Assembly: GCF_002854065.1 (NCBI RefSeq)
Contig: NZ_CP024147.1
Reading direction: 5' to 3' (one strand)
From: Escherichia coli
GTDB lineage: Bacteria; Pseudomonadota; Gammaproteobacteria; Enterobacterales; Enterobacteriaceae
DNA: 64,000 nucleotides
Shown here: piece after piece, positions 37,387 to 52,869 of the stretch
Layout: each line of letters begins with the position of its first letter
Position numbering within the stretch: the stretch's first letter is position 1
Program-made: the position numbers and the translations under genes
Notes under the pieces: model-generated
What the model was told of the DNA's origin: nothing
Databases searched by the model: none
What the model saw: only the letters and a program-made list of their open reading frames with translations

Positions 37387-37950
37387 ATGTCCTTGATTAA
37401 CACCAAAATTAAACCTTTTAAAAACCAGGCATTCAAAAACGGCGAATTCATCGAAATCACCGAAAAAGATACCGAAGGCCGCTGGAGCGTCTTCTTCTTC
37501 TACCCGGCTGACTTTACTTTCGTATGCCCGACCGAACTGGGTGACGTTGCTGACCACTACGAAGAACTGCAGAAACTGGGCGTAGACGTATACGCAGTAT
37601 CTACCGATACTCACTTCACCCACAAAGCATGGCACAGCAGCTCTGAAACCATCGCTAAAATCAAATATGCGATGATCGGCGACCCGACTGGCGCCCTGAC
37701 CCGTAACTTCGACAACATGCGTGAAGATGAAGGTCTGGCTGACCGTGCGACCTTCGTTGTTGACCCGCAAGGTATCATCCAGGCAATCGAAGTTACCGCT
37801 GAAGGCATTGGCCGTGACGCGTCTGACCTGCTGCGTAAAATCAAAGCAGCACAGTACGTAGCTTCACACCCAGGTGAAGTTTGCCCGGCTAAATGGAAAG
37901 AAGGTGAAGCAACTCTGGCTCCGTCTCTGGACCTGGTTGGTAAAATCTAA
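37387..37950 (+). CDS. ahpC: Alkyl hydroperoxide reductase peroxiredoxin subunit AhpC
   Basis: 187-aa [24 protein letters not shown]... with peroxidatic FTFVCPTEL motif. Confidence 0.95.
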
Positions 37951-49123: not shown

Positions 49124-50182
49124 TCATGCGGGGGTCTTTTGACGAGCTGCCGCGTCCTGGCGGGAGTGCTCAAGCAGGTTCTGCAAATAATGCAGCGTGA
49201 CTGCAGGGACCAGCGGCGCGATAGCCGTGAGATCGTTTTTCGCCAGCAGTTGACGTACCCGGGAAGCGGATATCGGCATCTCCTGGTAACGCAGCCGCTC
49301 AATTTCAACCAGTTCGATGGGCGGTGCGGAGATAGTCGGCGTTTCCAGCCAGTAGCGCATATCCTGGTTGTACTGGGCGGTAACGCGACAAAAGGGTTCA
49401 GTACCGACAAAGCGGTGAGTTACACCCAGCGCGGGAGCGAGGTACTGACGGAAAATCTTCAGATCAATTTCGGTGTAACAATGGTTAATGACGCTCTGTT
49501 CTTTAATGAAGTAGCAAGGGAACGTAGCGCGGGAGATGATGTATTCGGAGCCGCGATGCACAGTCAGGCGTGGAATATCGGCGGTGCCTTTTAACACCAG
49601 ATCCAGCCGGTCTTCATAGGGGAAGCGTGAAGAATCTTCTTTGACTAAAAACAGATGCAACCAGTCGCACTGTGCCGCAGCTTGTTGAATCAGATAACGG
49701 TGACCCTTCGTAAAGGGATTGGCGTTCATCACAATGCAGCCAATCTTGTTCCCGGGATGACGAAATTTTTTCAGCGATTCGGCATAGCGTTTCAATCGCG
49801 TGGCGCTGTTTTCCATCAGCACCATCACGCCTGGTACGCTGGTCAACGTGGAAAAACCGCACTGGCGGAACAGCGCCTCGTATTCGGTTTTGGTATAAAT
49901 AAACAGATGCGTGCTGTGCCGCTCATAGGCGAGGTTTATCAGTTCAGTGGCTAATGTCAGCGCCAGTCCTTCACCGCGAACGGATTCACTGATAGCAACG
50001 CATTTAATAATATTTCCGGCAATTCCACCGCACGCGATAAGCTTTTCATCGCGGGTTACGGTAATAAATACTTCGACTGTGGTGTCAACGCTCAAATCAT
50101 TTTCATGCAGGAATTGGGCGATTTTCGCCATTTTTTTATTTTCTGAACGTTTTACGCGGGTGAAAATATCATTGCCGAACAT
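49124..50182 (-). CDS. citC: [Citrate (pro-3S)-lyase] ligase CitC
   Basis: Track ORF 49124..50269; recalled CitC (352 aa) starts MFGNDIFTRVKRSENKKM. Confidence 0.85.
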   Translation of the reverse strand: MFGNDIFTRVKRSENKKMAKIAQFLHENDLSVDTTVEVFITVTRDEKLIACGGIAGNIIKCVAISESVRGEGLALTLATELINLAYERHSTHLFIYTKTEYEALFRQCGFSTLTSVPGVMVLMENSATRLKRYAESLKKFRHPGNKIGCIVMNANPFTKGHRYLIQQAAAQCDWLHLFLVKEDSSRFPYEDRLDLVLKGTADIPRLTVHRGSEYIISRATFPCYFIKEQSVINHCYTEIDLKIFRQYLAPALGVTHRFVGTEPFCRVTAQYNQDMRYWLETPTISAPPIELVEIERLRYQEMPISASRVRQLLAKNDLTAIAPLVPAVTLHYLQNLLEHSRQDAAARQKTPA

Positions 50183-50561
50183 AATAAATAGTATCCTGAA
50201 GGTGCATGTTGTTATCGATTTGCAACGAATGTTGTTCAATGTTGCAAACTGATAACCTTTTATTTTCACTTGGGAGAAAGGGGGGTGATCGAGGTATATC
50301 TTTTTCTCCTTTCGCTATACATCCTAAGGAGTATTTTGGCGTGAAATTTTGATTTATTTCACATAGAGTTAGTGGTTTTTTATTTATTTAATAGTTTTAA
50401 GTTTTTTAATTAATGTAATTACGAAATGACCCGCAGGTTTAATTGATTTAATTGATTTAATGAATGAAATTTGCCACGATTATAATTAATATCTATGTAT
50501 TTTGATTCAACATTTTAATTACATCCGTCAAAGAGGATCGGGACAACCCGCAAGGAAAACA
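50183..50561 (+). promoter_or_regulatory. AT-rich divergent citC / citA control region with short tandem direct repeats (aattgattt x2 near 50441..50470)
   Basis: About 380 bp of AT-rich sequence between divergent operons; this spacer is a reported target of the DpiA (CitB) response regulator. Confidence 0.5.
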
Positions 50562-52220
50562 ATGTTGCAGCTTAACGAGAATAAACAGTTTGCATTTTTC
50601 CAAAGACTGGCATTTCCGCTGCGTATCTTTTTGCTGATTCTGGTGTTCTCAATATTTGTCATTGCAGCCCTGGCGCAATATTTTACGGCCAGTTTTGAGG
50701 ACTATTTAACGCTTCATGTACGCGACATGGCAATGAATCAGGCGAAAATTATTGCTTCTAATGACAGTATCATCAGCGCAGTAAAAACGCGTGACTACAA
50801 ACGGCTGGCGACCATCGCTAACAAATTACAAAGAGATACCGATTTTGATTATGTGGTGATTGGCGACCGGCACTCGATCCGCCTTTACCATCCTAATCCG
50901 GAGAAAATTGGTTATCCTATGCAGTTCACCAAACAGGGCGCGCTGGAGAAAGGGGAGAGCTACTTCATTACCGGGAAAGGGTCAATGGGTATGGCGATGC
51001 GCGCCAAAACGCCAATCTTTGATGACGATGGAAAAGTCATCGGCGTGGTGTCGATTGGCTACCTGGTGAGTAAAATCGATAGCTGGCGGGCTGAGTTTTT
51101 ATTACCGATGGCAGGTGTGTTTGTCGTGCTGTTAGGGATTCTGATGTTGCTGTCGTGGTTCCTGGCCGCGCATATCCGTCGGCAGATGATGGGCATGGAG
51201 CCAAAGCAAATCGCACGCGTGGTCCGTCAGCAAGAGGCGCTGTTTAGTTCGGTTTATGAAGGGCTGATTGCGGTGGATCCGCACGGTTACATTACCGCCA
51301 TCAATCGTAACGCAAGAAAGATGCTGGGGCTGAGTTCCCCCGGACGGCAATGGTTGGGTAAACCCATTGCTGAAGTGGTCAGGCCCGCCGATTTCTTTAC
51401 CGAACAGATTGATGAAAAACGTCAGGATGTGGTGGCTAACTTTAACGGTCTGAGCGTTATTGCCAATCGGGAAGCTATTCGTTCAGGTGATGATTTGCTG
51501 GGGGCCATTATCAGCTTTCGTAGTAAAGACGAAATTTCCACCCTCAATGCGCAACTGACGCAAATAAAACAATACGTCGAGAGCCTTCGTACATTGCGAC
51601 ACGAGCATCTCAATTGGATGTCGACGCTCAATGGTCTGTTGCAGATGAAAGAGTATGATCGCGTGCTGGCGATGGTGCAGGGGGAGTCTCAGGCCCAGCA
51701 ACAGCTTATTGACAGTCTGCGCGAGGCGTTTGCCGATCGCCAGGTGGCGGGGCTGCTTTTTGGTAAAGTGCAGCGCGCCCGCGAACTGGGGCTAAAAATG
51801 ATCATCGTCCCCGGTAGCCAGCTTTCGCAACTGCCGCCAGGACTGGATAGCACCGAGTTTGCCGCCATTGTTGGCAATTTACTTGATAACGCCTTCGAAG
51901 CCAGCCTGCGTAGCGATGAAGGAAACAAGATCGTTGAATTATTCCTCAGCGATGAAGGCGATGATGTGGTGATTGAAGTCACCGATCAGGGCTGCGGCGT
52001 TCCAGAGTCTCTACGAGACAAAATATTTGAGCAGGGGGTCAGTACGCGTGCTGACGAGCCCGGTGAACATGGCATTGGGTTGTACTTGATTGCCAGCTAC
52101 GTAACGCGCTGCGGTGGTGTTATCACTCTCGAAGATAATGATCCCTGCGGTACCTTATTTTCAATCTATATTCCGAAAGTGAAACCTAATGACAGCTCCA
52201 TTAACCCTATTGATCGTTGA
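50562..52220 (+). CDS. citA: Citrate-sensing histidine kinase CitA (DpiB)
   Basis: Track ORF 50502..52220; recalled DpiB (552 aa) starts MLQLNENKQFAFF; two TM segments around a periplasmic sensor domain, then histidine-kinase ATPase motifs. Confidence 0.9.
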   Translation: MLQLNENKQFAFFQRLAFPLRIFLLILVFSIFVIAALAQYFTASFEDYLTLHVRDMAMNQAKIIASNDSIISAVKTRDYKRLATIANKLQRDTDFDYVVIGDRHSIRLYHPNPEKIGYPMQFTKQGALEKGESYFITGKGSMGMAMRAKTPIFDDDGKVIGVVSIGYLVSKIDSWRAEFLLPMAGVFVVLLGILMLLSWFLAAHIRRQMMGMEPKQIARVVRQQEALFSSVYEGLIAVDPHGYITAINRNARKMLGLSSPGRQWLGKPIAEVVRPADFFTEQIDEKRQDVVANFNGLSVIANREAIRSGDDLLGAIISFRSKDEISTLNAQLTQIKQYVESLRTLRHEHLNWMSTLNGLLQMKEYDRVLAMVQGESQAQQQLIDSLREAFADRQVAGLLFGKVQRARELGLKMIIVPGSQLSQLPPGLDSTEFAAIVGNLLDNAFEASLRSDEGNKIVELFLSDEGDDVVIEVTDQGCGVPESLRDKIFEQGVSTRADEPGEHGIGLYLIASYVTRCGGVITLEDNDPCGTLFSIYIPKVKPNDSSINPIDR

Positions 52221-52869
52221 GGACGAAACGCCGCTGGCAGAGATGCATGCGGAATATATTCGTCACATTCCCGGATTCAGTCAGATATTACTGGCGGGAA
52301 ACCTGGCGCAGGCCCGAATGATGATCGAGCGTTTTAAGCCGGGGCTAATCTTGCTCGATAACTATCTTCCTGACGGTAGAGGGATTAATTTATTGCATGA
52401 ACTGGTGCAGGCGCATTATCCCGGCGACGTGGTGTTTACCACTGCAGCCAGCGATATGGAAACGGTGTCTGAAGCCGTACGTTGTGGTGTATTTGATTAT
52501 CTCATTAAGCCAATTGCCTATGAACGGCTGGGGCAAACGCTAACCCGTTTCCGCCAGCGTAAACATATGCTGGAAAGTATTGATAGCGCCAGCCAGAAGC
52601 AAATTGATGAGATGTTTAATGCTTATGCTCGCGGTGAACCTAAGGACGAGCTACCGACCGGCATTGACCCCTTGACGCTAAACGCGGTGCGAAAACTGTT
52701 CAAAGAGCCGGGTGTGCAACATACGGCAGAAACGGTGGCGCAGGCACTGACCATCAGTCGCACCACTGCCAGGCGTTATCTTGAATATTGCGCCAGCCGC
52801 CATCTGATTATTGCTGAAATTGTTCACGGCAAAGTTGGCAGACCGCAACGCATATACCACAGTGGGTGA
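52189..52869 (+). CDS. citB: Response regulator CitB (DpiA)
   Basis: 226-aa ORF with receiver-domain features (LLIVEDE, ILLD aspartate); overlaps the citA 3' end by 32 nt. Confidence 0.9.
   Translation: MTAPLTLLIVEDETPLAEMHAEYIRHIPGFSQILLAGNLAQARMMIERFKPGLILLDNYLPDGRGINLLHELVQAHYPGDVVFTTAASDMETVSEAVRCGVFDYLIKPIAYERLGQTLTRFRQRKHMLESIDSASQKQIDEMFNAYARGEPKDELPTGIDPLTLNAVRKLFKEPGVQHTAETVAQALTISRTTARRYLEYCASRHLIIAEIVHGKVGRPQRIYHSG

Follow-up and report, generated by a model that had tools for sequence, protein, structure and literature searches.

The spacer between the divergent citC and dpiB (citA) genes of Escherichia coli carries the pentamer TTTAA seven times on its plus strand and not once on its minus strand, and six of these seven copies form two triplets in which the pentamers follow one another at exactly 9 bp, start to start. 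One of the triplets, the one nearer to citA, coincides with a short tandem repeat singled out in a first-pass annotation of the window (the whole 64-kb stretch of DNA analyzed here). We consider it likely that this repeat is the citA-proximal half of an operator for phosphorylated DpiA (DpiA~P; DpiA is also called CitB), made up of all six pentamers in their two triplets. The location of the pentamers, their nonrandom architecture, their deep conservation, and their coincidence with the region reported for DpiA are direct observations. That the spacer is the DpiA/CitB control region of E. coli is already known.

The boundaries of the spacer are exact, being set by the citC ATG (50182, minus strand) and the dpiB (citA) ATG (50562, plus strand), which leaves 50183-50561, or 379 bp. 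Its GC content is 30.9%, falling to 20.5% in the core at 50350-50520, compared to about 50% in the flanking genes. The first-pass annotation had described an AT-rich spacer of roughly 380 bp with citC to the left, citDEFXG-citT beyond it, and citAB to the right, and this assignment is correct, citA being dpiB and citB being dpiA. Both regulator genes, which encode the DpiB/DpiA (CitA/CitB) two-component system for citrate sensing directly to the right of the spacer, are intact, so that the window holds the cognate sensor-regulator pair. The features to which we refer are as follows.

49124-50182, minus strand: citC, citrate lyase ligase, first gene of citCDEFXG-citT (from the annotation of near-identical genomes and K-12)
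50318-50333, unstranded: NarL-like 7-2-7 site, TACATCC-TA-AGGAGTA, a strongly conserved block
50326 to 50321, minus strand: candidate citC -10 element, TAGGAT, overlapped by the NarL-like site
50347-50363, unstranded: CRP/FNR-type site TTTTGATTTATTTCACA, invariant, which reads TTTGA-N6-TCACA or TTGAT-N4-TTCAC
50376-50381, unstranded: T6 run between the CRP/FNR-type site and pentamer cluster 1, corresponding by alignment to K-12 position 652,049
50387-50409, plus strand: pentamer cluster 1, candidate DpiA~P site nearer citC, with TTTAA at 50387, 50396, and 50405
50438-50460, plus strand: pentamer cluster 2, the repeat of the first-pass annotation and candidate DpiA~P site nearer citA, with TTTAA at 50438, 50447, and 50456
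50509-50523, plus strand: invariant block AACATTTTWATTACA, candidate -10 region of the dpiB (citA) promoter
50525-50537, plus strand: ChiX (RybC)-complementary sequence CCGTCAAAGAGGA in the dpiB leader, with exact complementarity
50562-52220, plus strand: dpiB (citA), citrate sensor kinase, intact, 552 amino acids (Pfam sCache_3_2, PAS, SPOB_a, HATPase_c)
52189-52869, plus strand: dpiA (citB), response regulator expected to bind the spacer, intact, 226 amino acids (Pfam Response_reg and HTH_64, "DpiA-like HTH")

Pentamer architecture and natural variation in E. coli

The six phased pentamers span 50387-50460, that is, 205-278 bp upstream of the citC ATG. When the spacer was shuffled 5000 times, a pattern of two 9-bp triplets never arose, and a single triplet arose once. 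The same is apparent at the scale of the window, where four of the five matches to TTTAA-N4-TTTAA lie in the spacer, compared to 0.22 expected. The sole match elsewhere in the 64 kb, at 37409-37422 on the minus strand, is a single pair (TTTAAAAGGTTTAA). Clusters 1 and 2 were also paired with each other by a repeat finder, which reported them as a 34-nt direct repeat with 79% identity and a distance of 51 bp.

Within cluster 2, Tandem Repeats Finder reported a tandem repeat at 50438-50461 of 24 nt, with a period of 9, 2.7 copies, and a 100% match. Dinucleotide-preserving shuffling, repeated 5000 times for each, produced a perfect tandem of 24 nt or more once with the spacer and four times with its AT-rich core, and the window holds no second one besides 50438-50461. 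The string quoted in the first-pass annotation maps to 50441-50467. Two perfect copies of the direct repeat claimed there are real, but the third "copy," aatgaatga, matches at only five of nine positions. The unit that is conserved is the 9-bp-phased TTTAA pentamer rather than the 9-mer, and of the repeat clusters the second triplet was recognized, whereas the first was missed.

The perfect two-copy state hinges on the T at position 50443. Using a 34-nt allele-specific probe, we found this T in 142 of 5426 E. coli genomes, compared to a G in 5203, including K-12; in K-12 and the other G-allele genomes, the first unit reads TTTAAGTGA. The repeat copies are thus already imperfect in about 96% of genomes, and the perfect tandem is a rare minority allele, i.e., a peculiarity of the strain. 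The 80-nt haplotype that the window carries around the repeat has an exact match in only 4 of the 5426 genomes. As for copy number, an extra 9-bp unit was found in none of the 5426 genomes, and one unit is missing from three of them (E. coli DETEC-E223, 2-331, and N24; the gap aligns to 50438-50446). Because the three losses occurred on differing single-nucleotide polymorphism (SNP) backgrounds, with differing units retained, they indicate independent and rare slippage events. These three strains represent natural two-pentamer forms of cluster 2.

More broadly, a 551-nt query spanning the spacer matched 5419 of the 5426 complete E. coli genomes. Over the aligned query, the window differs from K-12 MG1655 by eight substitutions and one indel in a G-run (98% identity). 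The regional haplotype (50100-50650) is uncommon, with at least 99% identity over 551 nt in 76 of the 5419 matching genomes; the nearest haplotypes are those of strain 100416 (human stool, Gambia), the bovine strains XJ34 and XJ6-3, and the wastewater strain CUWW06. The G-run in question (50280-50285) has six G residues in the window, as in strain 100416, and five in K-12, which accounts for a spacer of 379 versus 378 bp and breaks the frame through a 48-codon open reading frame (ORF) at 50206-50352.

Conservation of the clusters across Enterobacterales

To compare the spacer between species, dpiB homologues were taken from one genome per species and the adjoining citC-citA spacers were extracted. 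An alignment of 16 spacers from Escherichia, Citrobacter, and Salmonella contains four invariant runs: 50347-50363 (17 nt, the CRP/FNR-type site), 50395-50412 (TTTTAAGTTTTTTAATTA), 50447-50460 (TTTAATTGATTTAA), and 50509-50523, for which the share of invariant columns is 88%. Two of these runs overlap the pentamer clusters. The flanks are variable: the share of invariant columns drops to 6% for 50421-50437 and to 19% for 50462-50508. Accordingly, the central unit of the 9-mer repeat is constant over the three genera and the first unit is semiconserved; outside Escherichia, both triplets begin with a pentamer conserved only as TTTWA.

The phasing extends considerably further. Across 62 species with the divergent arrangement, reaching as far as Hafnia, Edwardsiella, Yersinia, and Providencia, the citC-citA spacers contain 131 pairs of TTTAA at a distance of 9 bp and 57 at 18 bp, compared to 1 at 8 bp, 11 at 10 bp, and 0 at 11 bp; these spacers share ancestry, so that the pairs do not count as independent events, although the sequence surrounding them has diverged freely. 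In 379 kb of DNA flanking the same loci, only one TTTAA pair at 9 bp was found. The positions of the pentamers relative to the citA ATG are also kept, near -175, -166, -124, and -115. The pentamer clusters are hence under purifying selection, as an operator would be. Such conservation demonstrates constraint and does not by itself identify the protein that imposes it.

The case for DpiA and the alternatives

The position of the clusters speaks for DpiA. In the passage of PMC10610042 that cites Scheu 2012, the distance between the citC start codon and the DpiA site upstream of it is given as 190-280 bp; this second-hand interval converts to 50373-50463 in the window and holds the tandem repeat (50438-50461) as well as all six pentamers. 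The suggestion of the first-pass annotation that the repeats are candidate DpiA (CitB) sites, to be compared with the published DpiA region, is supported by this overlap and by the invariance of the core at 50447-50460. In the homologous spacer of Citrobacter rodentium, removal of the DpiA sites, which had been placed by alignment to E. coli, abolished the citrate response according to a preprint, and the same promoter was controlled by the host's DpiAB, NarL, and cAMP-CRP. A literature search that covered sources other than the primary footprint papers yielded neither a recognition consensus for DpiA or the CitB family nor a description of phased pentamers. In a PDB sequence search with DpiA, the receiver domain was matched and the HTH_64 domain was not. 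Phased TTTAA is absent from the AT-rich origin region of plasmid pSC101, which has been reported as a DpiA target; TTTAA phasing can therefore not be the whole of DpiA specificity.

The locus itself is the citC-dpiB DpiA region studied in E. coli (Yamamoto 2008, 2009; Scheu 2012), with the same regulator genes and DNA that is 98% identical to that of K-12, from which the window differs in its rare haplotype and in the T at 50443 that makes the tandem perfect. A related logic is known from the citS/citC control region of Klebsiella pneumoniae, where CitB is reported to bind A+T-rich targets between its own divergent cit operons, with CRP as a coactivator (Meyer, Dimroth and Bott 1997; Meyer et al. 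2001). The window resembles this case in that an invariant CRP/FNR-type site adjoins the AT-rich boxes between divergent cit operons and differs from it in gene order, citC facing citS-oadGAB-citAB in Klebsiella and citAB in the window. The closest paralogous regulator to DpiA is DcuR. In 2004 work by Abo-Amer et al., DcuR (of the DcuS/DcuR system) is said to act at dcuB through tandem short AT-rich hexamers located far upstream of the promoter, a case that differs from that of DpiA in regulator, target, and repeat unit.

The main alternative is that the spacer is architectural AT-rich DNA, bound by nucleoid proteins (H-NS, IHF, or Fis) or acting as a UP-element-like or curved stretch that sets basal promoter activity. 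Very AT-rich DNA does attract H-NS, IHF, and Fis; GC content drops to 20-23% over 50350-50520; the minus strand of the repeat (AATCAATTAAATC) is, by eye, one mismatch away from the IHF consensus WATCAANNNNTTR; and RNA polymerase holoenzyme alone binds the spacer in genomic SELEX. However, intrinsic curvature requires a phasing of about 10-11 bp, and the spacing found here is strictly 9 bp and thus not helical (among the 62 species, the 131 pairs contrast with 11 at 10 bp and none at 11 bp). Moreover, every pentamer lies on the same strand, the pattern is essentially confined to citC-citA spacers, with one case in 379 kb of flanks, and its location matches that reported for DpiA. The strict spacing, the single orientation, and the confinement to cit spacers together favor a specific reader protein, and we regard a purely architectural role as improbable.

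Two further explanations concern the 9-mer itself. That it is a slippage-prone contingency locus, switching the expression of cit or dpiBA, might be suggested by the three E. coli genomes that each lost exactly one 9-bp unit independently; yet against these three genomes with one unit fewer stand none of 5426 with an extra unit, the array has 2.7 copies at most, its copies are imperfect in about 96% of genomes, and its central unit is invariant across genera. On these population counts, which show no frequent variation in copy number, we reject a phase-variable repeat as very improbable. Still harder to credit is that the repeat is a functionless chance product of low-complexity AT-rich sequence, even if the perfect tandem depends on one minority SNP and its third unit is only 5/9 identical: shuffling produced the tandem in 1/5000 trials and the two-triplet pattern in 0/5000, the core is invariant in Escherichia, Citrobacter, and Salmonella, and the 9-bp phasing is kept as far as Providencia and Yersinia. 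Shuffles and conservation together exclude such an origin.

Predicted promoter organization and regulatory inputs

For the bases contacted by DpiA, the stoichiometry of binding, the positions of the promoters, and the identity of the coregulators, we infer the following scheme for the DpiA~P operator. Under anaerobic conditions in the presence of citrate, DpiB phosphorylates DpiA, and several DpiA~P molecules would then bind the direct repeats head to tail and activate both divergent promoters. Cluster 1, together with the CRP/FNR-type site at 50347-50363, would serve the activation of citC; cluster 2, which precedes the invariant block at 50509-50523 by about 70 bp, would serve the autoregulation of dpiBA.

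A scan for consensus σ70 promoters returned nothing in the spacer, and consensus scans for CRP, NarL, and FNR gave matches at chance frequency in the 64 kb, so that these three assignments derive from invariance combined with hints in the literature. The CRP-type site has one mismatch to the CRP consensus, which is at chance level (1.9 matches expected per 64 kb), and the invariant TTTGA-N6-TCACA is also readable as a pair of FNR half-sites. Both CRP and FNR have been named as regulators of citC, and either may be the protein that binds 50347-50363. The NarL-like site, with two mismatches to TACYYMT-N2-AKRRGTA, is not significant on its own. Judging from conservation, the citC promoter would have its -10 element at the TAGGAT overlapped by this site, and the block at 50509-50523 may hold the -10 region of dpiB. 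In genomic SELEX, RNA polymerase-RpoS holoenzyme alone gave a peak in the spacer at K-12 coordinate 651466, classed as a divergent "constitutive promoter" site, and the flagellar sigma factor gave a second, weaker peak inside dpiB (PMC5493296).

An amoxicillin-selected variant has been described whose only mutation is a 1-bp deletion at K-12 position 652,049, at a distance of 193 bp upstream from the citC ATG (PMC10610042). In the window this position falls in the T6 run that separates the CRP/FNR-type site from cluster 1, and the loss of one base here would change the distance from the DpiA boxes to the citC promoter by 1 bp.

Downstream of the candidate dpiB promoter, the leader appears to carry a target of the small RNA ChiX (RybC). 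The 13 nt of CCGTCAAAGAGGA are perfectly complementary to nt 46-58 of K-12 chiX (UCCUCUUUGACGG), which constitutes contiguous complementarity to the seed region upstream of the dpiB start codon. Position 50537 is an A in the window, allowing 13 bp, versus a C in K-12, allowing 12 bp. The spacers of Escherichia sp. MOD1-EC7003, Escherichia sp. E1V33, and E. whittamii carry a disrupted site, and those of Citrobacter and Salmonella lack it altogether. Our call is based on the exact 13-nt complementarity and not on duplex energy, since the RNAduplex energies calculated for whole-molecule ChiX did not stand out against background segments. Repression of dpiBA by RybC has been published (Mandin and Gottesman 2009).

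Several other features were observed on the citC side of the spacer. A 101-codon ORF with a GTG start at 49947-50252 (plus strand) overlaps the 5' part of citC on the opposite strand and extends into the spacer by 70 nt; it agrees in length and position with nog1, a "novel overlapping gene" of enterohemorrhagic E. coli (EHEC) with 306 bp in frame -2 of citC (PMC4683798). The same study used a longer EHEC citC of 381 amino acids, whose GTG start corresponds to 50269 in the window, and the spacer would then begin at 50270. A consensus scan, and no other method, revealed a terminator-like hairpin at 50117-50139 (plus strand; GGCGATTTTCGCC followed by ATTTTTTTAT), which lies inside citC on the antisense strand and within the nog1 ORF. 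An inverted repeat proximal to citC (50211-50226 and 50241-50256) has arms of 16 nt with 88% complementarity. The hairpin that this repeat would form in the citC leader was considered as a conserved RNA, with a folding energy of -18.2 kcal/mol in E. coli, but was rejected, given an RNAalifold energy of 0.00 and no consensus structure over 16 genomes; Rfam contained no RNA family with a match at an E value of ≤1 in 49900-50800. The same stretch (50207-50256) contains TGTTR/TGATA-like words about 10 bp apart, at 50210, 50230, 50240, and 50250, and GCAAnnTGATAAC (50243-50256) is conserved across genera. It is tempting to guess that 50207-50256 may be an operator for another regulator, with ArcA-like direct repeats.

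DpiA binding to the spacer had been established before, so that the repeat brings no new biology. The spacer controls anaerobic citrate fermentation in E. coli and, via DpiA, feeds into the β-lactam-induced SOS response and plasmid stability. What the present analysis contributes is modest: a conserved candidate operator architecture of two times three TTTAA pentamers at 9-bp phasing, along with a catalogue of natural, testable operator variants. Going further, we raise the possibility, less likely than not, that a same-orientation array of TTTAA at a strict, nonhelical distance of 9 bp, in two triplets that each serve one divergent promoter, is the recognition code of the DpiA/CitB family and that the natural variants (T/G at 50443, the 9-bp deletions, and the 1-bp deletion in T6) alter both citrate induction and the DpiA-dependent β-lactam/SOS response. 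The architecture could be of use in interpreting footprints, in building motif models of the CitB family, and in designing citrate biosensors.
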